Both the position numbers and the translations under genes were made by a program. This document shows, one piece after another, positions 23,557-36,846 of a stretch of DNA of 64,000 nucleotides. The DNA is from an uncultured Syntrophaceae bacterium (GTDB lineage: Bacteria; Desulfobacterota; Syntrophia; Syntrophales; UBA5619): contig CAZWTL010000001.1 of the NCBI GenBank assembly GCA_964637025.1, positions 9,394 through 73,393 on the forward strand, read 5' to 3'. Position 1 is the stretch's first letter. Every line of letters begins with the position of its first letter. The notes below the pieces were generated by a model. The model was not told the origin of the DNA. It saw only the letters and a program-made list of their open reading frames with translations, and made no database searches.

Positions 23557-24684
23557 ATGACCGTGTACGTTCGCCATGCGACCTATGAAAACGACGTCCT
23601 GAGGCCTTTGATATTCGGGATGATGGATGCGATGGGGGGAGGCGAGATCCGGAAGGGGAGCCGGGTCCTGGTGAAACCGAATCTGCTTTCTCCCGCGTTT
23701 CCTCGCCAGGCCGTGCTCACGCATCCCGGCGTCATCAAGGCTGCTGTCGAATACTGCATCGATCGGGGCGCCCGGGTGCTCGTTTCCGACAGCCCCGCGA
23801 TCGGTTCGTTCCATCTCATCCTCCGCAGGAACGGAATCCGCATGGCCCTCAGGGACCTCGACTGCGAATGCCGTCCATTTCAGAAATCCGTGCGGCTGGA
23901 TATCGGCGCCCCTTTCGGCGAGATCGAGATCGCGGAGGATGCCGCCCGGGCGGATTTCATCGTGAATCTGCCCAAGCTGAAGACCCACAGCCAGATGCTT
24001 CTCACTCTGGCCGTCAAGAACCTCTTCGGCTGCGTCGTCGGCGTTCGCAAACTGGAGTGGCACATGAGGGCCGGGATTGACCGGCAGGCTTTTGCACGGC
24101 TGATCGCCCGGATCGGCCTCAGCCTCAGCCCGGCCTTCAATATTCTTGACGGCGTCCTGGCCATGGAAGGACAGGGACCGGGCAAGAGAGGCATCCCGCG
24201 GGAGCTGTGCGTCATGCTCGCCGCCAGCGATCCTTTTGCCCTTGATCAGGCCGTGTGTCGGATGATCGCGCTGGATCCGGCAGCGGTTCCGGTCCTCAAG
24301 GCGGCTGGAGAACTGGGGTTCCCCATCCCGGAGGCCCGCATCGATGGCGTCCTCCCTGAAATCCACGACTTCCGCCTTCCCCGCAGGACCTCCCTGGTCT
24401 ATGGCCCGAAATTTACACACCGCTTCATTCGGCGGCAGGTTCTCCAGCGGCCGGTCTGCGATCCCGCCCTCTGCCGGCAGTGCGGTCAGTGCTTGTCGAT
24501 CTGTCCGGCTGGCGCGATCGTCCCTGAGGAGAAGCCGATTGACTTCGACTACGACCGGTGCATCCGCTGCTATTGCTGCATTGAAGTGTGCCCCTTCGGG
24601 GCAATCGACATTGGAGAGACCATGGTCAGCCGGATCATCCGCAGGGCCGCTTCCCTCATCCCGCAGTCAGTCAGGAAGAGATAA
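23557..24684 (+). CDS. DUF362-domain protein with C-terminal 2x[4Fe-4S] ferredoxin domain
   Basis: DUF362-like segments are VLVKPNLL... and ...LPKLKTH.... The C-terminus has CRQCGQCLSICP and CIRCYCCIEVCP. I set the start at MTVYVRH (ATG 23557). Confidence 0.7.
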   Translation: MTVYVRHATYENDVLRPLIFGMMDAMGGGEIRKGSRVLVKPNLLSPAFPRQAVLTHPGVIKAAVEYCIDRGARVLVSDSPAIGSFHLILRRNGIRMALRDLDCECRPFQKSVRLDIGAPFGEIEIAEDAARADFIVNLPKLKTHSQMLLTLAVKNLFGCVVGVRKLEWHMRAGIDRQAFARLIARIGLSLSPAFNILDGVLAMEGQGPGKRGIPRELCVMLAASDPFALDQAVCRMIALDPAAVPVLKAAGELGFPIPEARIDGVLPEIHDFRLPRRTSLVYGPKFTHRFIRRQVLQRPVCDPALCRQCGQCLSICPAGAIVPEEKPIDFDYDRCIRCYCCIEVCPFGAIDIGETMVSRIIRRAASLIPQSVRKR

Positions 24685-24973
24685 AAGGATTTACCTTTGC
24701 CATATTTTATGTTAGCAGACACTTGGACCGCAAGGCTGCACCGGGAACGGATCTCCTGTTTCGCCGAGCGGTCCGACGCATTCCGCTTCCACTCCCGGGA
24801 AGAGGGAGGATCGTCCCCAACGGGTTTCCACGGGCGAAAACGGATCAACCTCAAGCCGACGGTCCTGCGTTGGCTATTCCGCAGCCGTTGCGCGAAGGGC
24901 TCCGGACGCCGGAAATGAAATTCTTCTCGGGCCGTTTCCGGGATGAAATACGGCCCGGCTGCAAAAGGATGAC

Positions 24974-25690
24974 ATGGCAGATCAATTTGTCGAAGGATTG
25001 TCCGCCTATCTGCAGGGATCGGTTTCACTGTCTTTGCTGGCCGCTTATTTGGGAGGGGTGCTGATCAGCTTCACCCCTTGCGTCTACCCCGTGATTCCCA
25101 TCACCGCCGCATACATCGGCGCCCGCGGGGGCGGATCCAAGGGACGGGCGCTTCTCCTGTCCGTGGTCTATGTGACCGGCATGGCCGCAACCTATACGGT
25201 TCTCGGCGCCGCCGCCGCCCTTTCCGGAAAGCTGTTCGGCCAGGTCCAGAGCAACCCCTGGACCTATTTTCTGATCGGGAACCTTTGCGTGCTCATGGGA
25301 TTGTCGATGCTCGGCGTATTCCACTTTGCCGTCCCTACGCCGGACTTTGTGGCAAAGACGCAGACCCGCAACAAGGCAAAAGGGGTAGCAGGCAGTTTTC
25401 TGGTGGGGGCGGCCTCCGGACTCGTGATGGGTCCATGCACGACACCGGTTCTCGCCGTTCTTCTCGGCTATGCGGCAACGCGGCAGAATCTGGTCTTTGC
25501 GTCGAGTTTGATGTTTGTGTTTGCGTTCGGGATGGGCACCCTGCTCGTCCTGGTGGGTACCTTTGCCGGCTTTCTTTCGGCTATCCCCAAATCGGGTGTC
25601 TGGATGACCCGGATCACGACGATTTTCGGCTGGGTTCTACTGGGAGCGGGGGAGTATTTTTTGATCCATGCCGGAATGCTTTGGATATAA
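24974..25690 (+). CDS. ccdA: Cytochrome c biogenesis / thiol:disulfide electron-transfer membrane protein CcdA (DsbD-beta family)
   Basis: It is multi-TM with both conserved Cys contexts (SFTPCVYPVIP and GPCTTPV). Confidence 0.85.
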   Translation: MADQFVEGLSAYLQGSVSLSLLAAYLGGVLISFTPCVYPVIPITAAYIGARGGGSKGRALLLSVVYVTGMAATYTVLGAAAALSGKLFGQVQSNPWTYFLIGNLCVLMGLSMLGVFHFAVPTPDFVAKTQTRNKAKGVAGSFLVGAASGLVMGPCTTPVLAVLLGYAATRQNLVFASSLMFVFAFGMGTLLVLVGTFAGFLSAIPKSGVWMTRITTIFGWVLLGAGEYFLIHAGMLWI

Positions 25691-25700
25691 GGGGTAACTC

Positions 25701-26285
25701 ATGTTCTATTCGATGATGCGAAAACAGATCCTTTGCATCCCGGGTTCGAATGCGGGCAGCCTGCTGAACGCCGGCATGCGGTGGCTTGCCGCAGTGGCGA
25801 TGATGGCGGCGGTTCTGGCCTTCCCCCAGGACGGCCGCGCCGCCGGTCCACAGCCCCTGGTTACCGCCAAGACGGCCGTCGCCGACAGAGCCCCGGATTT
25901 CGTGCTCCGAGACTTGAAAGACCAGAGATTCCGCCTGAGCGACTTCAAGGGGAAAAACCCGGTCCTCATTATTTTCACGGCTACGTGGTGCACCTTCTGC
26001 AAGGATGAGATCCCCCGTTTCAAGTTCATCCATGAGACCTATGCAAAGCGGGGGTTGGAGATCGTCAACATCGACATCCAGGAATCGAAGGAAAGGGTGG
26101 CGCGCTTTACCGCCAAATATGGCATTCCCTACCGTGTGCTGCTCGATGAGGACGGCATCGTGAGCGGCATATACGGCATCCGGGGCGTGCCGTCGATGGT
26201 TTTGGTCGGCCCGGACGGGAACATCCTCTGTCGCCAGTGCCAGGGGGTGGAGCCCCTCATCGAGCCACTCCTGAAAAAGAGGTGA
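25701..26285 (+). CDS. TlpA/ResA-like periplasmic thioredoxin-fold thiol:disulfide oxidoreductase
   Basis: It has a signal/anchor segment, a WCTFC active site and the redoxin fold motif ...GVPSMVLV.... The exact start is uncertain (an internal MRWLAAV is possible). Confidence 0.8.
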   Translation: MFYSMMRKQILCIPGSNAGSLLNAGMRWLAAVAMMAAVLAFPQDGRAAGPQPLVTAKTAVADRAPDFVLRDLKDQRFRLSDFKGKNPVLIIFTATWCTFCKDEIPRFKFIHETYAKRGLEIVNIDIQESKERVARFTAKYGIPYRVLLDEDGIVSGIYGIRGVPSMVLVGPDGNILCRQCQGVEPLIEPLLKKR

Positions 26286-26306
26286 GATGGAACGGAGGTT
26301 GTCCTG

Positions 26307-26600
26307 ATGAGCGTGCTGATCCATTTTTCGATTTTTCCCACGGACAAGCAGACGGGTGTAAGTTCCTATGTCGCCAGGGCCGTCCGCATCATCCGCGACA
26401 GCGGCCTTCCCTACAAACTCGGTCCCATGAGCACGGCCGTCGAAGGAGAGTGGGAAGAAGTGATGGCCGTCGTTGAGCGTTGCTTCCGGGAACTCCGGAC
26501 GGATTGCGGCCGGATCTACATGACGCTCCAAATGGATTACCGGGAGGCCTCTCAGAACCGTATCGAGGGAAAGATCAAGTCGGTCGAGACGAAACTCTGA
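26307..26600 (+). CDS. MTH1187/YkoF-family (DUF77) thiamine-binding-like protein
   Basis: It is 97 aa, starts ...IHFSIFP and contains ...GLPYKLGPMSTAVEGEW.... GGAGG lies upstream of the ATG. Confidence 0.75.
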   Translation: MSVLIHFSIFPTDKQTGVSSYVARAVRIIRDSGLPYKLGPMSTAVEGEWEEVMAVVERCFRELRTDCGRIYMTLQMDYREASQNRIEGKIKSVETKL

Positions 26601-26615
26601 GAAAATCGGCAATCC

Positions 26616-27479
26616 CTATTTCTGGCAGATCAAGCAGATCCAGGTTCCCCGGCCCCCCATGTTGATGCGCTCAATGCGTCCTCCGCAACGCCTGCAGGGC
26701 GCCCCCTCCCGCGCGTATACCTCGAGATGGTCCTGATTCGTTCCGCGTCGGCCGAAGAGATCCCTCCAGTCGGAAACCGTTGTGCCCCGGCAGTCCACAG
26801 CCCGTTGCAGGATGACGGGGGCCGCTTCCGCGATCTTCCTCCATTCGGCGGCCTTCAGACTGCCGGCCGTCCGGCGGGGATCGATTCCTGCGGCAAAAAG
26901 AATCTCGCAGGCATAGATGTTTCCGATTCCGGCGACGAGATCCTGATCCATGAGGAAGGCTTTTACCGAACGCCGACGTGTCCCGGCGACCTTGTAAAGC
27001 CGCCGGGCCGATAGCCCGTCCATGGGGTCATCCGGAATGGCCGGGACCTTCGCTTCCGGATTCACCGTAAAGGTGGCAAAACGGCGCGGATCGATCAGCA
27101 GCAACGTTCCGGAGGAGCAACCGATGACCATGCGGCAATGTGGGGTCGTTCGGCCGGCCGGGGGCGTATCGGCCGGCCTGTAAAGCAGCCGCCCGGACAT
27201 CCGGAGGTGGATGGCCGCCGTCATGCCTCCCTCCATCTGCAAATGGATGCTCTTCCCCCTGCGAGTCACCTTGGAGATGCGGCGTCCAATCAGACCCGCG
27301 GGCTGATCCACCCCGGGGCTTTCCGGACCGGAGACCGGGAAAGACGCCACGCCTTTTTCCCGTTCCTGCCCGGTTTTTCGCAGACGCGAATCGAGGATTG
27401 CGATCCGGTGAATGATCCCGCCCCGAAGCACGCTGTTCAACTGGCGGCAAAGGGTCTCGACCTCTGGAAGTTCCGGCAT
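26616..27479 (-). CDS. mutM: Formamidopyrimidine-DNA glycosylase
   Basis: It has the N-terminal MPELPEVE and the C-terminal zinc finger CRRCGG...CLICQ. I set the start at ATG 27479, not the upstream ORF-track start. Confidence 0.9.
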   Translation of the reverse strand: MPELPEVETLCRQLNSVLRGGIIHRIAILDSRLRKTGQEREKGVASFPVSGPESPGVDQPAGLIGRRISKVTRRGKSIHLQMEGGMTAAIHLRMSGRLLYRPADTPPAGRTTPHCRMVIGCSSGTLLLIDPRRFATFTVNPEAKVPAIPDDPMDGLSARRLYKVAGTRRRSVKAFLMDQDLVAGIGNIYACEILFAAGIDPRRTAGSLKAAEWRKIAEAAPVILQRAVDCRGTTVSDWRDLFGRRGTNQDHLEVYAREGAPCRRCGGRIERINMGGRGTWICLICQK

Positions 27480-27671
27480 GACGGCTTTCCCAATCGGCCG
27501 CGCGGCTCGGGATCCGGATCGTCCCGAACGGCGCTCGCGGCGCCATTGATTTTGCAACGACTCTCATTGATGGCGGCGCCCTGTCAAGCAAAAAAGTGTC
27601 GCTTAAAATCAGACCTTTCAGTTCTTTTATTTCAAAAACGGGAACAATCAGTTCTTTAATAATTTAACTTT

Positions 27672-27683
27672 ATATTGCAATAT
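27672..27683. promoter_or_regulatory. Perfect 12-bp palindrome ATATTGCAATAT in an AT-rich divergent control region
   Basis: I read it directly from the sequence. It lies in the most AT-rich 60 nt of the window. Confidence 0.3.
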
Positions 27684-27736
27684 GTTAAATGAATTTTTTC
27701 AGAAAAATATAAGGTTACTATCGATTTACAATTTTA

Positions 27737-27759
27737 GACCGGAACAAGAAATTCCGGTC
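27737..27759. promoter_or_regulatory. Hairpin GACCGGAA-N7-TTCCGGTC (8-bp perfect stem)
   Basis: I read it directly from the sequence. No flanking U-tract is present, so its function is unassigned (operator or RNA structure). Confidence 0.3.
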
Positions 27760-27915
27760 CGAAAAGGACGTTTATGTAAAAAGCCCATGGTTATCATTGA
27801 CTTTCCTCATTGGCATGGATATTCCATTAATTTGAAGCTGTGCGTCCGATCGATGATTTGATGGATGTCTCGATCCGCGACACAGGCAACGGACGAGTGG
27901 CAAGGATGAGGCGGC

Positions 27916-28164
27916 ATGGCTCTTTCCACGAACAAAACAGTCACCCTGACGGGAATCGTCATTCCGGCGGACTGGAACGACCAACAGGAGGTGGTCGCCG
28001 CAGCCCTCGCAACAGCGGACGAACGGGAATACCGGATTGCAGGGAATAGAAAAGGCAAAGAGCTGTTGGACGCGCTTCAGCGACAGGTTGAGGCCGCCGG
28101 AGTGGTGGGGCGCGATGAAAAAGGAAGGGACGTCATCACCGTCAAAAGATATGTCGTGAAGTAA
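27916..28164 (+). CDS. Small hypothetical protein (82 aa)
   Basis: This is an ATG-initiated ORF with a purine-rich stretch (AAGGATGAGG) upstream and a normal, non-repetitive composition. It is the only plausible ORF in this interval. I did not recognise a family. Confidence 0.45.
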   Translation: MALSTNKTVTLTGIVIPADWNDQQEVVAAALATADEREYRIAGNRKGKELLDALQRQVEAAGVVGRDEKGRDVITVKRYVVK

Positions 28165-28244
28165 GGCGAAAGGCTGCAACGGTTCGGTACGGAGGGTGTT
28201 TTTTTATTGACAGACCTTGCCAAAAGGAGTAAAGGCCGACGAAA

Positions 28245-28306
28245 ATGCAAAGCAGGATTGCATCGTGATGTTCGTGTCTGTCCTGAAGGGTTTCCGAACC
28301 ATCACG
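28245..28306 (+). promoter_or_regulatory. Structured leader: two hairpins preceding an intrinsic terminator upstream of kamA
   Basis: The first hairpin is ATGCAA/TTGCAT (28245-28263). The second is CGTGATGTTCG/CGAAcCATCACG (28264-28306), 11 bp with one bulge. Confidence 0.35.
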
Positions 28307-28318
28307 AGGATTATCGAT

Positions 28319-28346
28319 AAAAAGAGAGGTCGCGTCCTCTCTTTTT
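28319..28346 (+). terminator. Rho-independent terminator (AGAGAGG-TCGCGT-CCTCTCT + T-run; A-run upstream makes it potentially bidirectional)
   Basis: A 7-bp GC-containing stem and 6-nt loop are followed by TTTTT. It sits 16 nt before the AGGAGG RBS of the kamA-like gene. Confidence 0.6.
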
Positions 28347-28377
28347 GAGCATTCAGAATATCAGGAGGCATTGACAA

Positions 28378-29679
28378 ATGGAAAGCGAGTCACTTTTTAC
28401 CGAGGAGGCGGAACCTCCAGGTCGTGGGACCGGCAACGGTCAATCCTACGATGGACATGCCGGTTCAACCATGAACATCCTTTACACCCCCCCGGCCCTG
28501 CCGGCGAGGCCGGCTCCGGCCTTATCCGCTTGCAAAGATGGCCGGGCACGGGCCTTCCGGAAACGTTTTTTCCCGAACACCCCCCTCAAGGAATGGAACG
28601 ATTGGCAATGGCAGCTTCGCAACCGCATCCGCGACGCGGAGACGCTGGGGAGAATGGTTCGCCTGTCGGAGGACGAACTCCACGCCATGATCGGCGCGGC
28701 GGGCTCGCTCCCCCTCGCCATCACCCCGTATTACATGAGCCTGATCGATCCTTGGAATCCACGCCAGGCTTTGCGCCGGACGGTCGTACCCACCGTGCAT
28801 GAGCACTTCCGTAGCAGCGGTGAGGCGGACGATCCGCTGCACGAGGATGAAGACAGCCCGGTTCCCGGCATTGTGCACCGCTATCCGGACCGTGTGTTGT
28901 TTCTGGTTACGGGGATCTGCTCCACCTATTGCCGTTACTGCACCCGGTCGCGTATGGTTGGACACCACGGCAACCGGTGCCTCAACACGGACCAGTGGGA
29001 AAAGGGAATCGCCTACATCGCGGCGCACCCGGAGGTGCGGGATGTCCTTCTGTCCGGAGGAGACCCCCTGACCCTGGCCGATGGGCAGCTGGAATGGCTG
29101 ATCGCCCATCTGCGTCGGATTCCCCACGTGGAGCTGATTAGGATCGGCACCAAGGCGCCGATCGTCCTTCCGCAGCGGATAACGCCCGCCCTGGTCCGGA
29201 TGCTGAGGCGCTACCATCCCCTCTGGATAAGCATCCATGCGACCCACCCGGACGAGCTGACGCCGGAAGCGTCCAGGGCGTGCCAGCGCCTGGCGGATGC
29301 CGGCATCCCCCTCGGCAGCCAGACGGTCCTGCTGGCGGGGATCAACGACGACGTGGGGACGATGACGCGCCTTATGCACGGGCTGCTGAAGATCAGGGTG
29401 AAGCCCTATTATCTGTACCAGTGTGATCCGATACCCGGCTCCTCCCATTTCCGGACGCCGGTGGCAAAGGGGCTGGAGGTCATCCGGGGCCTGAGGGGGT
29501 TCACCACCGGCTATGCGGTGCCGACCTATGTCATCGACGCACCCGGCGGCGGCGGCAAGATTCCGATCCTTCCCAAGTACGTCGAGGGACGCGAGGAAGG
29601 CGATCTGCTCCTGCGCAACTACGAAGGCAAGGTCTTCCGCTATCCGGATTGCCCGTCCGTGGAAGGCGTCATTCACTGA
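28378..29679 (+). CDS. kamA: Lysine 2,3-aminomutase (KamA/AblA family radical-SAM, PLP enzyme)
   Basis: Motifs are the CSTYCRYC radical-SAM triad, DPLHEDEDSPVPG, HRYPDRVL, the PLP-Lys context APGGGGK, and Asp residues in YQCD and VIDAP. AGGAGG lies 9 nt upstream of ATG 28378. Confidence 0.85.
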   Translation: MESESLFTEEAEPPGRGTGNGQSYDGHAGSTMNILYTPPALPARPAPALSACKDGRARAFRKRFFPNTPLKEWNDWQWQLRNRIRDAETLGRMVRLSEDELHAMIGAAGSLPLAITPYYMSLIDPWNPRQALRRTVVPTVHEHFRSSGEADDPLHEDEDSPVPGIVHRYPDRVLFLVTGICSTYCRYCTRSRMVGHHGNRCLNTDQWEKGIAYIAAHPEVRDVLLSGGDPLTLADGQLEWLIAHLRRIPHVELIRIGTKAPIVLPQRITPALVRMLRRYHPLWISIHATHPDELTPEASRACQRLADAGIPLGSQTVLLAGINDDVGTMTRLMHGLLKIRVKPYYLYQCDPIPGSSHFRTPVAKGLEVIRGLRGFTTGYAVPTYVIDAPGGGGKIPILPKYVEGREEGDLLLRNYEGKVFRYPDCPSVEGVIH

Positions 29680-29760
29680 ACCCGGGGACAGCGCGTCATT
29701 CCATGTTGAACCCCGCGCGAACGGGGGGAACGATGGCCGCTGTCCCCGATTAAATTCGCC

Positions 29761-30744
29761 ATGATGATCGGCATTACATACGATCTGCGGGACGACTACC
29801 TCGCCGAAGGTTACGGAGAGGAAGAAACGGCGGAGTTCGATCATCCGCGGACCATCGCCGCGATCGAGGAGACCCTGCAATCTCTCGGTTACGAAACGGA
29901 TCGGATCGGTCACCTCCGGGCGCTGGTCCGGCGGCTCGCAGCGGGAGACCGGTGGGATCTCGTTTTCAACATCGCCGAGGGGCTCCGGGGTTTTGGCCGC
30001 GAGGCCCAGGTTCCGGCCCTTCTGGACGCCTGGGAGATCCCTTACACCTTCTCCGATCCGCTTGTGCTGTCGCTCACCCTCCACAAGGGGATGACGAAAC
30101 GCGTCGTTCGCGATCTCGGAATCGCGACCCCGGATTTCGCCGTCGTCGGAACGCCGGAGGAGGCCGCAGCGGTGGATCTGCCCTTTCCGCTTTTTGCCAA
30201 GCCGGTTGCGGAAGGAACCGGGAAAGGGGTCACCGCCGCATCGAAGATCACAGATCGAAACGAACTCACCCGGATCTGCCGGAATCTGCTCGCCACATTC
30301 CATCAGCCCGTACTGGTTGAAACCTTTCTTCCGGGGCGCGAATTCACCGTCGGGATCATCGGGACCGGTGCCGAGGCATTCGTTCCCGGGGTGCTCGAGG
30401 TTTTCCTGACGGCCAAGGCGGAGAAAGAGGCCTATTCCTACGCGAACAAAGAGGACTGGCACGGGCGAATCGAATACCGCCTCGCTGACGACGCGATGGC
30501 CCTGGCGGCCCGGGAGGCGGCCCTGGCGGCTTGGCGGGGCCTCGGCTGCCGGGACGGGGGAAGGATCGATCTGCGCGCTGATGCGGATGGAACGCCAAAC
30601 TTCATCGAGGTGAATCCCTTGGCGGGCCTCCGGCCCGGCCATTCGGATCTCCCGATCCTCTGCGAGCTCGCCGGCATGCCTTACCGTGATCTCATCGACG
30701 GGATCATGCGTTCCGCGCTGAAACGCATCGGAAACCATCCATGA
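29761..30744 (+). CDS. ATP-grasp ligase, D-alanine--D-alanine-ligase-like family (paralogue 1)
   Basis: It is 327 aa. The N-terminus is IGITYDLRDDYL...EEETAEFD.... ATP-grasp core elements are LFAKPVAEGTGKGV and REFTVGI, with a C-terminal ...IEVNPLAGL.... Confidence 0.75.
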   Translation: MMIGITYDLRDDYLAEGYGEEETAEFDHPRTIAAIEETLQSLGYETDRIGHLRALVRRLAAGDRWDLVFNIAEGLRGFGREAQVPALLDAWEIPYTFSDPLVLSLTLHKGMTKRVVRDLGIATPDFAVVGTPEEAAAVDLPFPLFAKPVAEGTGKGVTAASKITDRNELTRICRNLLATFHQPVLVETFLPGREFTVGIIGTGAEAFVPGVLEVFLTAKAEKEAYSYANKEDWHGRIEYRLADDAMALAAREAALAAWRGLGCRDGGRIDLRADADGTPNFIEVNPLAGLRPGHSDLPILCELAGMPYRDLIDGIMRSALKRIGNHP

Positions 30745-31730
30745 AAATCGCCGTCGTCCATGGAGAGGTGGCCGCCGGTGCAGGCCGCGACGAACAGGAT
30801 GTCCTCGCGCAGGTGGACTGCGTCTCCCGCGGGTTGACCGCCCTGGGGCATGAAGCCGTTGCCGTTCCCGCTTCCATAAATCTCGATGCCCTCGCCCGCG
30901 CGCTGGCAGATATCCGCCCCGTGAAGGTCTTCAATCTCGTGGAGACGCTTGCAGGCAGGGGAGCCCTCATCCATCTTGTTCCCTCCCTCCTCGATGCCTT
31001 GAAGGTGCCCTATACGGGCGCCGGGGCGGACGCGATGTTCCTGACGTCGAACAAAATTCTCGCAAAGCGCCTCCTGGCCGCTGCAGGTCTTCCGACGCCG
31101 GGGTGGCTGTCGGCGGCGGACCGGCAAGGAACCCTGCCCATCGATGGGGCATGGCTTGTCAAGTCCGTCTGGGAGCATGCCTCCATCGGTCTCGATGAGG
31201 ATTCCGTTCTCTTGGCAACGGACCAAACCCGGCTTTTCGCGGAAATGGACGCCCGCCGGGAGGCATTGGGCGGGGCCTGCTTCGCGGAAGCCTATGTCGA
31301 CGGCAGGGAATTCAACCTTTCGATCCTGGACGGTCCCGAGGGGCCGCAGGCGCTTCCCCCTGCCGAGATCCGGTTCGATGCCTATCCGCCGGGCAAGGTC
31401 CGCGTGGTCGGCTATCGGTCGAAATGGGAGGAGGAGAGCTTCGAATTCGTCAACACCCCCAGGACGTTCGATTTCTCCGACGAGGATGCCCTTCTGCTGG
31501 CGCATCTCAAGGAAATGGCCCTTCGATGCTGGAACCTTTTCGATTTGCGCGGATATGCCCGGGTCGATTTCCGGGTCGATCGGCAGGGAAGACCCTGGAT
31601 TCTCGAAATCAACGCCAACCCCTGCCTTTCGCCGGATGCGGGTTTTCCCGCGGCTTGCCACCGGGTGGGATTGAGCTTTACGGATCTTCTGAACCGAATA
31701 TTGCATACGGGGGACCGGCGACCGGCCTGA
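30741..31730 (+). CDS. ATP-grasp ligase, D-alanine--D-alanine-ligase-like family (paralogue 2)
   Basis: It is 329 aa with motifs ...SNKILAKRLL..., WLVKSVWEHASIG, REFNLSIL and ARVDFRVD...PWILEINANP. The start overlaps the upstream stop (ATGA). Confidence 0.75.
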   Translation: MKIAVVHGEVAAGAGRDEQDVLAQVDCVSRGLTALGHEAVAVPASINLDALARALADIRPVKVFNLVETLAGRGALIHLVPSLLDALKVPYTGAGADAMFLTSNKILAKRLLAAAGLPTPGWLSAADRQGTLPIDGAWLVKSVWEHASIGLDEDSVLLATDQTRLFAEMDARREALGGACFAEAYVDGREFNLSILDGPEGPQALPPAEIRFDAYPPGKVRVVGYRSKWEEESFEFVNTPRTFDFSDEDALLLAHLKEMALRCWNLFDLRGYARVDFRVDRQGRPWILEINANPCLSPDAGFPAACHRVGLSFTDLLNRILHTGDRRPA

Positions 31731-31807
31731 ACCCTCCGGCCTTCCCCCAGGGGCGGTGCAGCGCTGCGGGCGCTGTGCCGATTCATATGACGAGGAAATG
31801 CAGAACC

Positions 31808-32155
31808 ATGTTCAAACCGCTTATCCTGTTAACCTTATCCAACCTGTTCATGACGTTTGCTTGGTACGGCCACCTCAAGACCATGAACGGCAAACCCCTC
31901 ATCCTGATCATCCTGCTAAGCTGGGGAATCGCCTTCTTTGAATACGTGCTCCAGGTACCCGCCAATCGCATCGGCATCCATTATTTTAATCTGGGTCAAC
32001 TCAAGGTCATCCAGGAGATCATCACGATGATCGTATTCGCCGGCTTCGCCGTCCTCTATATGAGACAGCCCCTGAAGATGGACTATCTCTGGGCCGGCTT
32101 CTGTCTCATCGGCGCCGCCTATTTCATTTTCCGGGGAGGCGCACCCCATGCCTGA
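31808..32155 (+). CDS. Half-size DMT-superfamily membrane protein (DUF486-like, about 4 TM)
   Basis: It is 115 aa and starts MFKPLILLTLSNLFMTFAWYGHLK, with ...FFEYVLQVPANRIG... further on, as in DUF486 DMT-family proteins. Confidence 0.65.
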   Translation: MFKPLILLTLSNLFMTFAWYGHLKTMNGKPLILIILLSWGIAFFEYVLQVPANRIGIHYFNLGQLKVIQEIITMIVFAGFAVLYMRQPLKMDYLWAGFCLIGAAYFIFRGGAPHA

Positions 32156-32663
32156 AAGCCCTTGGGCGTCTGTTCCGTGCTTCCGCGAGGAGGTTTCTCC
32201 GCAGGACAGCCAGAAGGTCGAACGCCTCGTCCGCGCGACAGGTTTTTTTTCGGAGGAGGAAATCGGCATCGCCGTCGAACTCGTCGAGGAGGGGCTGGCC
32301 AGAGGGAATGCGAGCGGCTACTGGTTTGTCTTCGCCGAAGCGGAGAACCGCCTGCTGGGTTACGCCTGTTTCGGCCCGATTCCCGGCAGCGTGCACAGCT
32401 TCGATCTGTATTGGATCGCCGTCGATCCCGGGGCACAGGGACGCGGGATCGGGCGGTTGCTGATGAAGGCCGCGGAACGGCGGATGGCTGAGCGGGGCGC
32501 GCGGCGGATCTTCGCGGATACCTCGTCCCGCCCCCAGTATGAGCCGACCCGCGCCTTCTACCGCGCCTGCGGTTATCTCGAAGAGGCGCTCCTGTCCGAT
32601 TTCTACGCCCCGCAGGACGGCAAGGTCATTTTCGCGAAGACACTCTCCGTTCCCACGGATTAG
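32148..32663 (+). CDS. GNAT-family N-acetyltransferase
   Basis: It has the acetyl-CoA binding loop AQGRGIGRLLM, with ...FYRACGY... at the C-terminal end. The start overlaps the DMT gene by 8 nt. Confidence 0.8.
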   Translation: MPESPWASVPCFREEVSPQDSQKVERLVRATGFFSEEEIGIAVELVEEGLARGNASGYWFVFAEAENRLLGYACFGPIPGSVHSFDLYWIAVDPGAQGRGIGRLLMKAAERRMAERGARRIFADTSSRPQYEPTRAFYRACGYLEEALLSDFYAPQDGKVIFAKTLSVPTD

Positions 32664-33103
32664 CCATTTCCATATATCCCGTTGCCCCTGAAAACTACTC
32701 AATGGGTGCAAACGGGGTTGAGACAGACTGTTCATTCGACAACGTTTCTCGTCCGTCACCTGTCGACTATTATGGTGTAGCCTGGCTGCCGTTCAAAGAT
32801 CGCATGAAGTTTGGTCGACAGCGTCGTTCCCGCCTTGAAAGTCTTCAGGGGCTCAGCGGGCAGATTTCAACTCTGTCCTGCCCCAGAAGGCGACGCCATC
32901 CAATCGGGGGCGAGGAATCGAAGGGCAGTTCATGTTGCACGTGGTCGAAGCAGTGAAGGTTTGTCAATAAGCTTTTTACGGGAACGGCTGACTTCAAACT
33001 CGCCATCTTGGTGGGGATCCATGAAGAATCAGCACGATGACGGAGGGGGCCGAGGCAATGCGAAACGGCTCCATGCGCCATGCTGGCCGATCCGGTGGTG
33101 GAG

Positions 33104-33811
33104 CTATCGCGTCAGCAGACTCAAGAGATTTACGATGACAGGTGCAATCACCAGGGCCGGCAGGAAGTTGCCCACCCGGATTCTTTTAAGTTCCAGGATG
33201 CTGCTGATTCCGATGCCGATCAGCAAAATCCCGCCCGTGGCCGTCATCTCGTTCATCATCGCCGTATTGACGACGGCGCTCAACCGTACCGCCAGAAGGC
33301 TGATCGCGCCCTGATAGACGAATACCGGAAGGGCTGAGAATGCGACCCCAATCCCCATGGTTGAAGCAAAGGCGATTGAAAGAAAACCGTCCAGGACGGA
33401 TTTGATCGCAAGGGTCAGGTAATCGCCGCTCATACCGTCGCTGATCGATCCCAGGATGGCCATCGGTCCTGTGCAGTACAGCACGGATGCGGCCAAAAAA
33501 CCGCGGACAAACAAACCGGTGGCACCCTGCGTCGAGCCGCCGGTAATCCGTCTTTCAAGCCAGATTCCCAGATTCTGCAACCCATCCTCGATCCTCATCC
33601 ACTCACCTAAGAGCGCCCCCATAATCAACGCACCCAGCACAACCAGCGGATTTTCCGTTTTGAGGAACATCTGCATGCCCACTGCAGCGGTGAATATCCC
33701 CATTCCCCCAAGCACGGCGGATTTGAGCTGATCGGACAGGCGCGGGCCAAAGAGCAGGCCGATGCCACTGCCTGCCAGGATTGAGATGACGTTGATAACC
33801 GTTCCGGTCAT
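33104..33811 (-). CDS. DUF554-family membrane protein
   Basis: It starts MTGTVINVISILAGSGIGLL, is a Gly-rich multi-TM protein, and is 235 aa from ATG 33811. Confidence 0.75.
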   Translation of the reverse strand: MTGTVINVISILAGSGIGLLFGPRLSDQLKSAVLGGMGIFTAAVGMQMFLKTENPLVVLGALIMGALLGEWMRIEDGLQNLGIWLERRITGGSTQGATGLFVRGFLAASVLYCTGPMAILGSISDGMSGDYLTLAIKSVLDGFLSIAFASTMGIGVAFSALPVFVYQGAISLLAVRLSAVVNTAMMNEMTATGGILLIGIGISSILELKRIRVGNFLPALVIAPVIVNLLSLLTR

Positions 33812-34232
33812 TTTCCCCAGGTCGCTCCTGCTGATGAGCCGGCGTGCCGGTTGTTGATCAATGCGCGTGCAACGCAAGAAACATGACGGCTGGTGAAAAA
33901 TGGAACGCAGGGCCCATGTCCCGCTTTTCATCGGAGATTTCGCCCATCATAGCAGGCTGACGGGTGCAGCCCATGAGCGTGCGTTTCAGTATCGCCCCTC
34001 TCCTGAATGGATTTCGGTTGGCAAGATGTAATTTTGGGCGCATTCGCTTGACTTTTCCAGGATCGGCGTATAGCAGGTCCGATTTTGCATTTCAAGCACC
34101 ATTCGCCTTGCCAGGTCCATTTGTTCCATATATGAAAACTCATAATCTAACATACAGAACATTCAGCTTGACATTGATTTTCCATATGCTAAAAAAAAAT
34201 CCCAATATACGGAACAATAATTATGGCGGGGA

Positions 34233-35045
34233 ATGGCCGTGAAGCGATTACCGTCAAGCCTCCAGAACCCATTGAATCCCGAAAATAAATACCGGGTGAC
34301 CTCACTCGACAAGGCGCTCTTGATTCTCGAACTGCTGATCGACCAGGGCCGGGATCTTTCCATCACGGAGATTTGTCAGAAACTCGGCATGGTCAAGGGA
34401 ACGGTGCATCGCGTCTTGGCCACCCTCGTGATGCGGAAATTTATCCAGCAGAACAGCAGAACCAAAATGTATGGCCTGGGCGTGCGGACGCTGGAGATCG
34501 GCATAGACTCCAAAAGAGAGAGGGTCCTCCGCATCGCCATGGCTCCCTTTATGATGGACCTCTATGAGCAGTGCGGCGAGACGATCAATGCCGCCGTATG
34601 GGAATACAACGGGATTCGCTACATCTACCGTTTGGAATCGGAGGCCTTACTGCGAATCTCCACGGTGGGGGGCGCGAGATTCCCGGGCTACTGCTGCGCC
34701 ACAGGTAAGGTCCTACTGTCCTACTTCAGCAACGAGGATATCCGGCAGATTTACAGTCTGAGCAATTCCTTGAAGAAGTTCACCCGGAACACGATCACCT
34801 CAATCGACAAATTGATTCAGGAAATCGAGGAAGTCCGGATCCAGAAACTGGCGGTCGACGATGAAGAGGCCCTGATTGGGGTCTACTGCGTAGCCGCGCC
34901 CATCTTGAACCCAAAAGGTGAATGTGTGGCCGCCATCAGTATTTCGGCGCCGAAGGAGCGGGCATCCGCAAATACGCGGGACACGCTCATGCAACTGGTT
35001 TCCGAAACGGCTGCAAAAATATCGAGTTCCTTAAGTACGCACTGA
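34233..35045 (+). CDS. IclR-family transcriptional regulator
   Basis: The N-terminal wHTH is SLDKALLILELL...LSITEICQKLGMVKGTVHRVLATL, followed by a C-terminal IclR effector domain. Confidence 0.85.
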   Translation: MAVKRLPSSLQNPLNPENKYRVTSLDKALLILELLIDQGRDLSITEICQKLGMVKGTVHRVLATLVMRKFIQQNSRTKMYGLGVRTLEIGIDSKRERVLRIAMAPFMMDLYEQCGETINAAVWEYNGIRYIYRLESEALLRISTVGGARFPGYCCATGKVLLSYFSNEDIRQIYSLSNSLKKFTRNTITSIDKLIQEIEEVRIQKLAVDDEEALIGVYCVAAPILNPKGECVAAISISAPKERASANTRDTLMQLVSETAAKISSSLSTH

Positions 35046-35081
35046 ATTTGGAAACACCATTCGAACTGTGGGGATGACGAT

Positions 35082-35654
35082 ATGATTGGGATTCGGTTTC
35101 ATGGCAGAGGGGGACAGGGAGCTGTCGTCGCATCAAAAATTCTGGCCCATGCCTATTTCAAACAGGGGTTCTATGTTCAAGCTTTTCCATCGTTCGGCAT
35201 GGAGAGGAAAGGGGCCGCGGTTTCCGCGTTCGTCAGACTCGATGACGCTCCCATTGTCGAGCGTGGAGAGATCAGGAATCCTTCAGCCATCATCGTGCTT
35301 GATTCTTCGCTGCTGCGCAAAGTGGATGTGACCCATGGCGTCAAGCCGGATGCGCTGATCCTGATCAATTGGCGGGAAAATGAAAAACAGAATCCCATCA
35401 AGGGTTCCCTTCGGGTGGCTGGAGTGGACGCCGTCAAAATAGCACTCCAGCATGGGTTGGGCTCGAAGACGGCCCCCATCATCAACACCGTCATCCTCGG
35501 GGCCTATGCCAGGGTTTCCGGAGATCTCGCGCTTGCAAACCTTCTGGAGGCCATTGAAACGGGTGTGCCGGTGAACCAAAAGCAGAACATGGCCGCCGCT
35601 GAAGCGGCATATCAGAGCGTATTCATGATCTCAGGAGATGTGAATGCAAACTAA
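35082..35654 (+). CDS. 2-oxoacid:ferredoxin oxidoreductase, gamma subunit
   Basis: It contains ...IRFHGRGGQGAVVASKILA... (the GRGGQG motif of POR/VOR gamma subunits); 190 aa. Confidence 0.85.
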   Translation: MIGIRFHGRGGQGAVVASKILAHAYFKQGFYVQAFPSFGMERKGAAVSAFVRLDDAPIVERGEIRNPSAIIVLDSSLLRKVDVTHGVKPDALILINWRENEKQNPIKGSLRVAGVDAVKIALQHGLGSKTAPIINTVILGAYARVSGDLALANLLEAIETGVPVNQKQNMAAAEAAYQSVFMISGDVNAN

Positions 35655-36846
35655 AACCATCATCAAGAGATTGTTGGAACTACCCACCGCGCCGACCACG
35701 ATTGGCACCATGGCCTGGAATCTGACGGGCGACTGGCGCTACGTCACGCCGCTGGTCGCCGATAAGCTGGCGCCCTGCAGCCAGAGCTGCCCGGCGGGCA
35801 TTCCGATTCCACGCCATCTGGGCGCTGTGAGCCACGGGGACTTTGAAGGCGCACTTACCCTGTTGTTTGCCCATAACCCTTTGCCCGGCCTGACCGGTCG
35901 CCTATGTTATCACCCCTGCCAGACCCAGTGTGTTCGCCGGAAAATCGACCGGATGATACCGATCCAGGAGTTGGAACGGTTTTTGGGTGATCTCGCTACA
36001 GACATAAGCATTGAGAAGGGTGACAAGACGTGTCTACGGGTCACGTTTATCGGGTCCGGTCCTCTGGGGCTCTCCTGTGCCTTCTATTTGGGTTGTCAGG
36101 GATACGAAGTCACCATTCTGGACCCATTCCAGAAGGCGGGGGGAGGGCTTGCCGCTCTTCCGCCGGAGAAGATTGAGCCGCGGGTGCTGTCGCACGAAAT
36201 CGACCGTTTGATCCGCCTTGGCGGTATCAGGTATGAAGCCAACGTAGCGATCGATTCCACCGACCTCGGTCAAGCGACATCAAAAGCGGACCTGGTCATT
36301 CTGGACCCGACGGGACTTTCTGCCGACTTTTGTCAACCTGCCGGTACGGTCGCCTGTGACCCTTTTGACGATGAGGTCGTCACCGGCGGGATGGTCTCCG
36401 TCCAATTGCCCAAAATCCTCACACCCTTTAAGGCGCCTATGATCGCCCACTACATTGCAGCAGGACGCTTAATGGCCCGGAAGGTGGTCGATGGTTTGAA
36501 CCTGGAAGGGTCCGAAAAGCCGATCCCAAAACCTCCCCTCCGGGCCGTGGAGATTGAAAATATCCGAATCGACCGTTTTTGCGCCGTTGGTCCTCCCATT
36601 GAGGAGGCCGCCGAGCAGGATGGAATAAGGGACCGGAAGTGGGCGACGCGTGAAGCCGGGCGCTGCCTCTCCTGCGGGACCTGCAACCTCTGTCTGCAAT
36701 GTGTCACCTATTGTCCCGATGCCAGTATCCGGCAGGATGGAGAGAAAGCCACGGTTGCGGTCGACTTGGACCACTGCAAGGGATGCGGCATCTGTGCCTA
36801 TGAGTGCCCCCGGGGGGTCATTACCATGGAGGATATGAACCTATGA
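35644..36846 (+). CDS. OFOR delta-type 2x[4Fe-4S] ferredoxin fused to a truncated GltD-like Fe-S/FAD module
   Basis: The N-terminus has CSQSCPAGIPIP...CYHPCQTQC (a GltD/DPD-type cluster domain). It has a single dinucleotide motif, FIGSGPLGLSCA...ILD. The C-terminus has CLSCGTCNLCLQCVTYCP and CKGCGICAYECP. It occupies the porD slot between the gamma and alpha genes. Confidence 0.7.
   Translation: MQTKTIIKRLLELPTAPTTIGTMAWNLTGDWRYVTPLVADKLAPCSQSCPAGIPIPRHLGAVSHGDFEGALTLLFAHNPLPGLTGRLCYHPCQTQCVRRKIDRMIPIQELERFLGDLATDISIEKGDKTCLRVTFIGSGPLGLSCAFYLGCQGYEVTILDPFQKAGGGLAALPPEKIEPRVLSHEIDRLIRLGGIRYEANVAIDSTDLGQATSKADLVILDPTGLSADFCQPAGTVACDPFDDEVVTGGMVSVQLPKILTPFKAPMIAHYIAAGRLMARKVVDGLNLEGSEKPIPKPPLRAVEIENIRIDRFCAVGPPIEEAAEQDGIRDRKWATREAGRCLSCGTCNLCLQCVTYCPDASIRQDGEKATVAVDLDHCKGCGICAYECPRGVITMEDMNL

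Follow-up and report, generated by a model that had tools for sequence, protein, structure and literature searches.

A conserved operon predicted to pair a lysine 2,3-aminomutase with two Ddl-like ligases and an acetyltransferase in diverse bacterial phyla

Organization and conservation of the operon

A conserved operon found in more than 12 bacterial phyla is predicted from sequence to pair a lysine 2,3-aminomutase (KamA) with two Ddl-like ligases and an acetyltransferase. In the window (the whole 64,000-nucleotide stretch of DNA analysed here), the ORF listing gives five co-directional genes on the + strand: kamA (28378–29679, 433 aa), ATP-grasp ligase 1 (29761–30744, 327 aa), ATP-grasp ligase 2 (30741–31730, 329 aa), a DMT_6/DUF486 membrane protein (31808–32155, 115 aa), and a GNAT N-acetyltransferase (32148–32663, 171 aa). 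The tight junctions described in an earlier note on this DNA were all confirmed by direct reading of the sequence. They comprise an 81-nt gap between kamA and ligase 1, an ATGA overlap between the two ligase genes (30741–30744), a 77-nt gap before the DMT_6 gene, and an 8-nt overlap between the DMT_6 and GNAT genes (32148–32155). The ribosome-binding site of kamA (AGGAGG) is located at 28363–28368. Every motif quoted in that note (CSTYCRYC, YQCD, VIDAPGGGGK, and QGRGIG) was found, and the profile search that it had recommended for all five proteins was run against Pfam and NCBIfam, giving Radical_SAM plus LAM_C, Dala_Dala_lig_C twice, DMT_6, and Acetyltransf_1.

A survey yielded 294 relatives, and the gene order was examined in the best 80 related loci. 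The core consists of four genes (kamA, ATP-grasp 1, ATP-grasp 2, and GNAT), whose order is kept in 54 of these 80 loci and spans at least 14 phylum-level groups. Carriers include Thermodesulfobacteriota, Myxococcota, Acidobacteriota, Planctomycetota, Bacteroidota, Proteobacteria, Spirochaetota and others; among the cultured carriers are Desulfovibrionaceae, including Desulfovibrio, and most carriers are metagenome-assembled genomes from freshwater or anaerobic digesters. With dozens of distantly related genomes sharing this order, the arrangement is not attributable to chance. Ligase 1 is the most conserved partner of kamA and adjoins it in about 75 of the 80 loci, ligase 2 is present in 66 or more, and both KamA and ligase 1 show 60–70% identity across phyla. 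Natural fusions join KamA to ligase 1 (P0375) and ligase 1 to ligase 2 (P0361, P0362, and about 20 more two-domain representatives). Conservation of the neighbourhood, which had been set beforehand as a test, thus holds for the kamA–ligase 1 pair and the full core alike, with the fusions in addition. The GNAT gene is missing from 8 loci and ligase 2 from 6, so that the end product may vary by lineage; a minimal module of kamA and ligase 1 without GNAT occurs in 6 loci. The earlier note knew of no characterised example, and a search likewise found no characterisation of this operon type in the searchable literature.

The aminomutase

KamA, a radical-SAM/PLP enzyme by family, aligned with the lysine 2,3-aminomutase of C. 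subterminale (CsLAM; PDB 2A5H) with an E value of 6.5e-139 and passed the KamA family model TIGR00238 (363.8 bits, cut-off 199.2). In the 2A5H alignment its motifs map to the Cys triad, D293, D330, and the PLP-binding K337 of CsLAM, and R134 is kept too. The equivalents of all these residues are invariant in 71 of 71 KamA orthologues, including those for lysine specificity, namely D293 and D330, which bind the epsilon-ammonium group, and R134, which binds the carboxylate (CsLAM numbering). In agreement with the earlier assignment on the basis of D293 and D330, the enzyme is predicted to be a lysine-type aminomutase that makes beta-lysine. Scores below the cut-off were obtained with the AblA equivalog TIGR03820 (481.2 against 525.4, model positions 4–362 of 417) and the models for glutamate aminomutase (421 against 650), arginine aminomutase (388 against 600), and EpmB (TIGR03821; 257.9 against 369.3 bits).

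The alignment ends at CsLAM residue 367 of 416 and covers positions 1–56 of 127 of Pfam LAM_C, indicating that the C-terminal ~45–55 residues are missing from KamA. At the other end KamA has an extension of ~65 residues, which is absent from CsLAM: when the two are aligned (2A5H), CsLAM has only a few residues ahead of the core that both proteins share. From these alignments KamA is assigned to an N-extended, C-truncated aminomutase subfamily. Nearly all cluster-linked orthologues across phyla, including that of Desulfovibrio, carry in this extension a motif of the form [acidic]n-E-P-P-[G/S], which in the window protein is E-E-A-E-P-P-G at residues 9–15 (28402–28422, + strand). The KamA–ligase 1 fusion has a degenerate form of it, VEPS.

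A role in EF-P beta-lysylation, as for EpmB, had been thought unlikely. That judgement is borne out by the EpmB score and by a tblastn search with EF-P, which found no efp in the window and none in the 83 loci searched. The argument that KamA is a full-length LAM was wrong, because its C-terminus is truncated, like that of EpmB. A Syntrophales genome with a separate yjeK-efp pair has been reported (PMC2821294).

The two ATP-grasp ligases

Both ligases contain the Dala_Dala_lig_C domain (PF07478; E values of 5e-23 and 1.7e-18 for ligases 1 and 2) and are 28% identical to each other, which fits their earlier description as diverged paralogues of the Ddl branch. Foldseek retrieved only Ddl structures for ligase 1, and ligase 2 gave weak matches to TTL and RimK profiles. 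Active site residues were compared in 81 ligase-1 and 67 ligase-2 sequences using the numbering of E. coli DdlB, the sequence of which was verified against 1IOV/2DLN. No sequence of either set departs from K97, K144, E180, E187, K215, R255, D257, or N272. E270 is fixed in ligase 1; in ligase 2 this position holds Glu in 64 of 67 sequences and Asp in the other 3. By this residue comparison, both ligases keep the full ATP/Mg catalytic residue set of ATP-grasp carboxylate-amine ligases, in which D257, E270, and N272 are the Mg ligands.

The substrate pockets are altered according to the DdlB sequence alignment, the N-terminal domain of which is only weakly aligned; the AF2 model is of mediocre quality (pLDDT 63.5; active-site loops <50). 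In ligase 1, S150 is replaced by Thr, Y216 is absent, and L282 is replaced by Asp, each invariantly, with S281 staying Ser, and in ligase 2, Y216 is replaced by Trp and G276 by Cys, both invariantly, S150 by Ala or Gly, and L282 by Gly in 63 of 67 sequences, while the position of S281 is mostly Ala (Ala in 46, Ser in 10, and Gly in 6 of the 67). Against the Ddl models NF002378 and TIGR01205 (cut-offs 243 and 245.65 bits), ligase 1 scored 136.7 and 102.8 bits and ligase 2 scored 114.5 and 93.1 bits. Given these scores and the departures from the D-Ala-binding set of S150, Y216, S281, and L282, neither protein was accepted as a D-Ala-D-Ala ligase or as an orthologue of cell-wall Ddl, a possibility raised in the earlier note. 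Annotation pipelines label both proteins D-alanine--D-alanine ligase.

The acetyltransferase and accessory proteins

The GNAT matched PF00583 with 68.1 bits (cut-off 20.7; E 1e-18). As the earlier note had recognized, QGRGIG forms its acetyl-CoA loop; the two Gly residues are kept in 49/53 and 53/53 sequences. The score against the AblB model TIGR03827 was 15.6 bits (cut-off 205.1), and RimI was the best NCBIfam match, yet with 44.8 bits it remained below the cut-off of 86.4. The GNAT also matches PDB 2R7H over 160 residues (E 2e-41), a crystal structure without assigned function that is titled 'putative D-alanine N-acetyltransferase of GNAT family', and the gene for a protein with 99% identity to 2R7H sits in the same kind of four-gene cluster. 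These matches place the GNAT in a distinct family, orthologous to 2R7H. In about 15% of the clusters a gene for an APAH-like (acetylpolyamine-amidohydrolase-like, HDAC-type) deacetylase is added. The protein is nearest to the acetylpolyamine amidohydrolases 9GKZ, 6PHR, and 3Q9B (E 1e-68 to 1e-62), and in three loci (L058, L070, and L032) it is fused to the cluster GNAT.

The DMT_6 protein matched PF04342 with 154.2 bits (cut-off 25; E 1.4e-45) over model positions 2–104 of 104. To our knowledge, this family (DUF486) has no known function. The listed ORF begins at 31424, and its start was assigned to the ATG at 31808 based on the Pfam match, the orthologues, and a ribosome-binding site (GAGGAA, 31792–31797). 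The gene occurs in 11 of the 80 loci, all from Syntrophales/Smithella relatives. The small membrane protein had been proposed as a part of the pathway; from this distribution it is a lineage-specific accessory outside the core. Transporters are occasionally linked, such as DMT_6 in the window and an AzlC-like protein in L031, and most loci are without one. A lysA-like gene lies downstream in the Smithella loci.

Upstream region

The elements upstream of kamA were absent from the earlier note, as were the KamA N-terminal motif, the APAH-like deacetylase, and the GNAT crystal structure. An 82-aa ORF (27916–28164, + strand) is conserved on the same strand upstream of kamA in 13 or more loci, with identities in distant loci of 42% (L018), 34% (L026), and 31% (L024). 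Its 192 homologues are all 'hypothetical' and contain no Pfam domain, and the AF2 model of the protein is poor (pLDDT 48). The ORF is missing from most phyla that have the core, and in Thermodesulfobacteriota it is probably the first gene of the unit.

A sigma-54-type −24/−12 promoter-like element, TGGCATGGATATTCCA (27811–27826, + strand), lies 105 nt upstream of the small ORF. Every Syntrophales locus carries the same element, in a TGGCACGGATCTTCCA-like form, ahead of its small ORF, and sites with the consensus TGGCAC-N5-TTGC lie upstream of the small ORF or kamA in L018, L024, L026, L054, and L083. Since the window has TTCC instead of TTGC in the −12 part of the element, its function as a sigma-54 element is putative. 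A sigma-70-like promoter region (28207–28246, + strand), identified by promoter scan and conservation in 12 Syntrophales loci, includes TTGACA (28207–28212) and the scan match TTGCCA-18-GAAAAT (28217–28246). The kamA leader contains a terminator-type hairpin (28319–28346, + strand) with the arms AAAAAGAGAGG and CCTCTCTTTTT and the loop TCGCGT, which ends 16 nt before the ribosome-binding site. It is conserved in 13 sequences, with a compensatory AU to GC change at one base pair, and its 3' arm resembles an anti-SD sequence. The hairpin is a candidate attenuator; an Rfam search gave no match at E ≤ 1.

Proposed pathway and alternative explanations

From the observed gene content, conservation, fusions, and residue patterns, we infer with slightly better than even confidence that the operon makes a beta-lysine-derived, amide-linked, N-acetylated small molecule. 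A product of this kind had been predicted in the earlier note, whose reading is partly supported. For the substrates beyond lysine, the sequence of reactions, and the function in the cell we propose the following. KamA would convert L-lysine to beta-lysine, as suggested by the full conservation of its catalytic and lysine-binding residues. Ligase 1 would then form the first amide bond of beta-lysine via an acyl-phosphate intermediate, and the invariant Asp at the position of Leu282 in its nucleophile site suggests that a cationic amine is held there, for example the second amino group of beta-lysine. Ligase 2 would add a second amide bond; because its nucleophile site is without the carboxylate-binding Ser-Leu pair in most orthologues, this enzyme may accept as partner an amine that has no alpha-carboxylate. 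Finally, the GNAT would acetylate one of the primary amines still free, most likely that at the epsilon position, and where an APAH-like enzyme is encoded the acetyl group could be removed again. Such a product is probably a nitrogen-rich solute of the cytoplasm or a polyamine-like metabolite. Its synthesis would be regulated, in several lineages by a sigma-54 promoter that has its own enhancer-binding protein and in the window by a terminator-type leader. In Syntrophales, the DUF486 protein may carry the product across the membrane. Points that count against this pathway include the following: the freshwater or digester habitat of most carriers gives no obvious call for an osmolyte, and a plain small-molecule route leaves the E-P-P motif of KamA and the 82-aa ORF unexplained.

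Both features would have a place if the ligases attached beta-lysine or a short isopeptide to a protein carboxylate or amine, which we consider unlikely. The target would be the E-P-P tail of KamA, the 82-aa protein, or another protein, giving a post-translational modification or a LysW-like carrier, and the GNAT would write and the HDAC-type enzyme erase an acetyl mark. Consistent with such a system, the acidic motif sits on a flexible extension in nearly all orthologues and is degenerate where KamA is fused to ligase 1, the conserved small ORF is predicted to be co-transcribed in several lineages, each of the four enzyme types has relatives that modify proteins (EpmB, RimK/TTL-type ATP-grasps, RimI, and HDACs), and KamA is without the LAM C-terminal region, as is EpmB (PMC2821294). 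However, the characterised Ddl-branch ligases act on small molecules, as do the nearest relatives of the deacetylase, the small ORF is missing from most core-bearing phyla and its C-terminus is not conserved like a carrier tail, and no efp lies nearby, nor, according to the earlier note, an EpmA-like gene. That the KamA tail (or the 82-aa protein) is itself the covalent acceptor or carrier for a ligase-built beta-lysine isopeptide is quite doubtful. If true, a radical-SAM enzyme would itself work by LysW-like amino-group-carrier logic, or there would be a new protein modification made reversible by the GNAT and the HDAC-type enzyme; the system would be under sigma-54 control and spread over more than a dozen phyla.

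It is also unlikely that the product is a cationic oligo-beta-lysine or beta-lysyl-polyamine of antimicrobial or competitive function that is N-acetylated in the producer, exported, and activated by deacetylation. In analogy to streptothricin acetyltransferases, N-acetylation would protect the producer from the compound. The streptothricin N-acetyltransferase STAT is among the weak matches of the GNAT (E 1.2e-5), but this similarity is weaker than that to RimI. The acetyltransferase/deacetylase pair suits a pro-drug logic, and the patchy cross-phylum distribution suggests horizontal transfer; on the other hand, the identity of 60–70% and the uniform, compact four-gene layout resemble a physiological pathway more than a diversifying secondary metabolism. 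Exporter-type proteins are sometimes linked (DMT_6, the AzlC-like protein, and a MATE pump in a Nostoc operon described below), whereas most loci are without transporters.

An ablAB-like osmolyte route to N-epsilon-acetyl-beta-lysine alone, with ligases of unrelated function such as cell-wall D-Ala-D-Ala synthesis, follows the aminomutase plus acetyltransferase logic of methanogens (PMC3543383 and references therein) and the pipeline annotation of the ligases, but it is scarcely credible, and the cut-off scores together with the fusions already refute most of it. The GNAT is not AblB by its score, and the ligases miss every Ddl cut-off and have altered D-Ala-binding residues. The ligase genes separate kamA from the GNAT gene in 54 loci, some genomes encode a ligase as a fusion with KamA or with the other ligase, and kamA plus ligase 1 is found without any GNAT.

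Comparison with known systems

The preferred small-molecule pathway shares with AblA/AblB of methanogens and some bacteria a lysine 2,3-aminomutase having the same lysine-binding residues and co-transcribed with a GNAT. It differs in the two inserted ATP-grasp ligases, in the GNAT family, and in a KamA that scores below the AblA cut-off, is C-truncated, and carries the N-terminal E-P-P extension. DdlA, DdlB, and VanA are the best structural and sequence matches of the ligases, with the same fold and identical ATP/Mg and acyl-phosphate-stabilising residues. In contrast to Ddl, the ligases here show 21–27% identity in the structural matches, score about half of the family cut-offs, are altered at S150, Y216, G276, S281, and L282, and neighbour kamA rather than mur/fts genes. 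An ATP-grasp ligase and a GNAT also cooperate in the Ngg/AsnO pathway, which builds the dipeptide osmolyte N-acetylglutaminylglutamine amide, and a Ddl-like ligase, MysD, acts in mycosporine-like amino acid synthesis. By their descriptions, these systems use other amino-acid building blocks and no aminomutase, and the Ngg ATP-grasp subfamily is different. As in EpmB/EpmA, a KamA-family enzyme without the LAM C-terminal region would supply beta-lysine to a ligase, which here is an ATP-grasp enzyme and not a LysRS paralogue.

In lichen-associated Nostoc, an operon of LAM, SET, and 'D-Ala-D-Ala ligase type 3' with a MATE pump nearby has been described (PMC5987646, supplementary file 2). Like the present operon, it is described as combining a lysine 2,3-aminomutase and a non-canonical Ddl-like ligase in one transcription unit; it differs in having one ligase and a SET methyltransferase in place of the GNAT. 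The Nostoc operon is itself uncharacterised, and its authors predicted the transfer of modified beta-lysine to an unknown acceptor, a prediction made independently and of the same kind as the present one (PMC5987646).

Gene organization and flanking regions

The cluster comprises five genes on the forward strand of the window: kamA (28378–29679), ATP-grasp 1 (ligase 1; 29761–30744), ATP-grasp 2 (ligase 2; 30741–31730), a gene for a 115-aa DMT_6 (DUF486) membrane protein (31808–32155) and a GNAT gene (32148–32663). ORF analysis and direct reading of the sequence reproduced the exact positions and the four junctions given in an earlier note on this DNA. The junctions are an 81-nt gap between kamA and ligase 1, an ATGA stop/start overlap at 30741–30744 between the two ligases, a 77-nt gap with a GAGGAA ribosome-binding site between ligase 2 and DMT_6, and an 8-nt overlap at 32148–32155 between DMT_6 and GNAT. 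An AGGAGG sequence is located 5' of kamA at 28363–28368. Pfam and NCBIfam assigned the products, in gene order, to Radical_SAM plus LAM_C, Dala_Dala_lig_C (twice), DMT_6 and Acetyltransf_1. GNAT is the end of the operon, because the first downstream gene, encoding a DUF554 protein (33104–33931), is on the reverse strand.

The genes on both sides look unrelated to the cluster. The upstream flank (23452–27557) encodes a DUF362 Fe–S protein, a CcdA-like membrane protein, a thioredoxin-like protein and a member of the thiamine-binding-protein family, followed by Fpg/MutM on the reverse strand, while the downstream flank (33104–38006) contains the DUF554 gene, an IclR regulator and a 2-oxoacid:ferredoxin oxidoreductase-like gene set. 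Four of these names (DUF362, thiamine-binding protein, DUF554 and IclR) rest on a Pfam check and the others on a reading of the translations. PADLOC matched none of six proteins to a defence system, and tblastn gave no match to ligase 1 among the plasmids in PLSDB.

Conservation, distribution and gene fusions

A scan with ligase 1 at one genome per species yielded 294 relatives, and the gene content of the best 80 of these loci was scored by tblastn with the five window proteins. The neighbourhood on which the earlier proposal of a beta-lysine conjugate operon relied proved to be conserved, with the complete kamA–ligase 1–ligase 2–GNAT core in 54 of the best 80 of 294 loci. Within the same 80, eight loci lack GNAT but keep the other three genes, six have kamA and ligase 1 only, and two or three have ligase 1 by itself; kamA is directly 5' of ligase 1 in essentially all loci with enough flanking sequence. 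The carriers are Syntrophales (the lineage of the window), other Thermodesulfobacteriota, Myxococcota, Acidobacteriota, Planctomycetota, Bacteroidota, Alpha- and Gammaproteobacteria, Spirochaetota, Fibrobacterota, Verrucomicrobiota, Bacillota and several candidate phyla. The best Syntrophales loci show 86–90% identity. KamA and ligase 1 maintain 60–70% identity across the carrier phyla, and ligase 2 and GNAT diverge more (34–57%).

An exhaustive HMMER search with ligase 1 against 1.84 billion cluster representatives gave 756 proteins at E ≤ 1e-30; this is an upper bound, as related ligase families are included in the set. Many of the top matches are proteins of 640–730 aa with two Ddl-like modules. 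Among the protein-cluster representatives, P0361 and P0362 are clear ligase 1–ligase 2 fusions, and P0375 (746 aa) is a KamA–ligase 1 fusion with Radical_SAM, LAM_C and Dala_Dala_lig_C domains. These two types of fusion are strong evidence that KamA, ligase 1 and ligase 2 serve a common pathway. Three other representatives (P0380, P0388 and P0398) form a separate family of ~700-aa proteins in which two ligase-1-like ATP-grasp modules stand in tandem; identity is about 40%, and WSDL replaces HSDL.

KamA

KamA was aligned to lysine 2,3-aminomutase of Clostridium subterminale (CsLAM; PDB 2A5H) with an E value of 6.5e-139, and the Cys triad, Arg134, Asp293, Asp330 and Lys337 (CsLAM numbering) were all matched. 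All of the motifs quoted in the earlier note were found, and the alignment places those of KamA at catalytic or lysine-binding positions. In particular, the two Asp residues that the note had assigned to the epsilon-ammonium site are the equivalents of Asp293 and Asp330. Lysine is the expected substrate of KamA because the triad and these four residues are kept in 71/71 orthologues. The enzyme is not the full-length LAM that had been supposed, as the alignment stops at residue 367 of the 416 in CsLAM and only the first 56 of the 127 LAM_C positions are covered. It scores above the KamA-family cut-off of NCBIfam and below all equivalog cut-offs, including those for AblA of the N-epsilon-acetyl-beta-lysine pathway (481 vs 525 bits), glutamate aminomutase (421 vs 650 bits) and arginine aminomutase (388 vs 600 bits).

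The N-terminus of KamA is about 65 residues longer than that of CsLAM, and this extension, absent from CsLAM, bears an acidic EEAEPPG motif (residues 9–15; 28402–28422). The pattern [acidic]n-E-P-P-[G/S] is present in nearly all cluster-linked KamA orthologues, from Bacteroidota to Desulfovibrio, and is degenerate in the KamA–ligase 1 fusion P0375. The simplest guess is that the motif is a docking site for ligase 1; it may also be a covalent acceptor.

The two ATP-grasp ligases

In agreement with the earlier description of the ligases as diverged paralogues of the Ddl branch, the two share 28% identity, each has a Dala_Dala_lig_C domain, and solved Ddl structures (21–27% identity) are their only structural neighbours. 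We aligned 81 ligase-1 and 67 ligase-2 sequences with E. coli DdlB, whose sequence was verified against 1IOV/2DLN. Lys97, Lys144, Glu180, Glu187, Lys215, Arg255, Asp257 and Asn272 (DdlB numbering) are invariant in both families, while Glu270 is invariant in ligase 1 and Glu or Asp in ligase 2. Both ligases are probably active enzymes, because the ATP, Mg and transition-state residues are all retained in both families.

The specificity positions are unlike those of Ddl and also unlike each other. Ligase 1 has S150T, lacks Tyr216 and has an invariant Asp at the position of Leu282. In ligase 2, Tyr216 and Gly276 are invariantly replaced by Trp and Cys, Ser281 is mostly Ala, and Leu282 is Gly in 63/67 sequences. 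The Asp of ligase 1 could possibly anchor a cationic group of the nucleophile, and the frequent loss of the Ser–Leu carboxylate clamp in ligase 2 hints at a nucleophile without an alpha-carboxylate; both readings of the pockets are tentative, as the alignment to DdlB is weak over the N-terminal domain. The AlphaFold2 model of ligase 1 (pLDDT 63.5) has disordered active-site loops, and a Foldseek search of the PDB with this model gave Ddl structures only and was uninformative on specificity. Identity with the cell-wall Ddl, which the earlier note had raised as a possibility, was rejected on cut-off scores, pocket residues and genomic context.

GNAT and accessory genes

GNAT scores only 15.6 bits against the AblB cut-off of 205, and its best curated match is RimI, under the cut-off. 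It matches PDB 2R7H over 160 residues at about 50% identity (E = 2e-41), an entry deposited as a "putative D-alanine N-acetyltransferase of GNAT family" and mentioned in the searched literature only in an unrelated context. A protein 99% identical to 2R7H is encoded in a cluster of sigma-54 activator, KamA, Ddl-like, Ddl-like and GNAT genes, and in Desulfovibrio mangrovi, whose genome is complete (CP104208.1, cluster region 3553749–3570258), the same gene order is followed by a GNAT–HDAC protein. A GNAT matching 2R7H is carried by an Oleidesulfovibrio strain. The pathway is thus accessible in cultured sulfate reducers.

The small membrane protein that the earlier note had included in the pathway is indeed encoded in the window; DMT_6 is not a core component, however, because it is present in only 11 of the best 80 of 294 loci, all from Syntrophales or Smithella relatives. 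A protein of ~580 aa adjoins the cluster in 12–13 loci (~15% of related clusters; e.g., L058 7996–10269, L070 8044–10353, L024 8321–9799 and L083 8629–10386, in locus coordinates) and is fused to the cluster GNAT in three; the window has no copy. Its N-terminal domain is weakly GNAT-like and is combined with an HDAC-family domain, and its closest solved relatives are acetylpolyamine amidohydrolases (APAHs; E = 1e-68 to 1e-62). APAHs act on small N-acetylated aminoalkyl compounds, and the relationship fits the predicted acetylation of a beta-lysine moiety at its epsilon-amine. In four Smithella relatives (L021, L022, L025 and L044), a lysA-like diaminopimelate decarboxylase gene is located downstream at about 10.7–12.0 kb in locus coordinates; it scores 293 bits against a cut-off of 297.9 and may supply lysine. 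One Bacillota locus has an AzlC-like transporter gene.

Proposed pathway and alternatives

On balance, we regard a small-molecule pathway as the probable function of the cluster. KamA would convert lysine to beta-lysine, after which the two ligases, ligase 1 first, would each form one amide bond by acyl-phosphate chemistry, and GNAT would acetylate the leftover primary amine, reversibly where the APAH-like enzyme occurs. These steps would yield an N-acetylated pseudo-di- or tripeptide of beta-lysine or else a beta-lysyl-amine conjugate, which might act as a regulated, nitrogen-rich solute or as a polyamine-like metabolite.

A modification linked to a protein or carrier is a rather unlikely alternative, and we are similarly doubtful that the product is an exported cationic compound masked by acetylation. 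That the cluster is an ordinary ablAB pathway with unrelated ligases is highly improbable and was rejected: the cut-off scores contradict it, GNAT belongs to a different family, and natural fusions join the ligases with KamA or with one another. EF-P modification, already thought unlikely in the earlier note, is improbable as well and was rejected on the poor score of KamA with the model of EpmB, the EF-P beta-lysylation enzyme (258 vs 369 bits), and the absence of efp from the window and from each of the 83 loci searched. Syntrophus aciditrophicus is reported to have a separate yjeK–efp pair (Bailly and de Crecy-Lagard; PMC2821294).

Relation to known systems

The cluster shares the logic of an aminomutase plus an acetyltransferase with AblA/AblB; its proteins fail membership in each of the AblA, AblB, EpmB and Ddl families. 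In its other half it resembles small-molecule ligation by ATP-grasp enzymes, for which MysD and Ngg are precedents. Four uses of beta-lysine are known from bacteria and archaea: it is a precursor of osmolytes, modifies EF-P, arises as an intermediate in fermentation and forms the side chain of antibiotics; the operon would add a fifth, taxonomically far broader. Among its carriers are syntrophs, sulfate reducers, Bacteroidota, Planctomycetota, Acidobacteriota and Myxococcota, all dominant groups in anoxic sediments and digesters.

The earlier note knew of no characterized example, and none was found within the searchable literature, where no paper with both "aminomutase" and "ATP-grasp" describes the cluster; the 2009 Iyer/Aravind amidoligase survey, outside this scope, may list the neighbourhood. 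The nearest published remark found comes from supplementary text to a genome paper on Nostoc, which reports a LAM–SET–"Ddl type 3" operon with a MATE pump and predicts transfer of modified beta-lysine to an unknown acceptor (PMC5987646); that operon is also uncharacterized and differs in composition from the cluster.

The cluster is real, very widespread, misannotated and experimentally tractable. All these genes are currently annotated as "D-alanine–D-alanine ligase" or "RimI-like", which misleads the annotation of cell-wall and resistance functions. Once identified, the product would establish a new class of metabolites, provide the orphan structure 2R7H with a function and assign substrates to two new families of Ddl-like ligases. 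The presence of the cluster in cultured Desulfovibrio, D. alaskensis G20 included, makes the question directly testable.

Upstream ORF and candidate regulatory elements

An ORF of 82 aa (27916–28164, forward strand) upstream of kamA is conserved in all Syntrophales loci and occurs in three distant lineages at 31–42% identity. Its product has no Pfam domain, 192/192 homologues are annotated as "hypothetical", and the AlphaFold2 model (pLDDT 48) was not usable. The ORF follows a sigma-54-type −24/−12 promoter-like element (27811–27826, forward strand), and this 16-mer, related to the sigma-54 consensus, is kept in all Syntrophales loci. Desulfovibrionaceae and several other lineages have, directly 5' of the cluster, a gene for a sigma-54-dependent enhancer-binding protein (L081 2874–4310, L083 2857–4293, in locus coordinates, and also L018, L024, L026 and L054), and no such protein with a GAFTGA motif is encoded within the window. 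Wherever the activator gene is adjacent, the consensus TGGCAC-N5-TTGC is found 5' of the 82-aa ORF or of kamA; the ORF itself is preceded by a consensus promoter in the distant loci L018, L024 and L026. The adjacent activator implies dedicated transcriptional control of the cluster. The sigma-54 regulome paper on D. vulgaris Hildenborough mentions neither an aminomutase nor a ligase, and a 2025 sigma-54 survey mentions LAM for Bacilli only.

The interval between the 82-aa ORF and kamA also holds a conserved promoter-like stretch. No RNA family was detected in the whole window at Rfam gathering thresholds or in 27500–33200 at E ≤ 1. Just 5' of the ribosome-binding site, the conserved kamA leader (28247–28377) contains a terminator-type hairpin of 11 bp with a U-run (28319–28346), which is shared by 13 Syntrophales sequences, shows a compensatory change in one pair and has a 3' arm (CCUCUCU) complementary to the Shine–Dalgarno sequence. 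It looks like a candidate attenuator or riboswitch, and its ligand, if any, would be informative.
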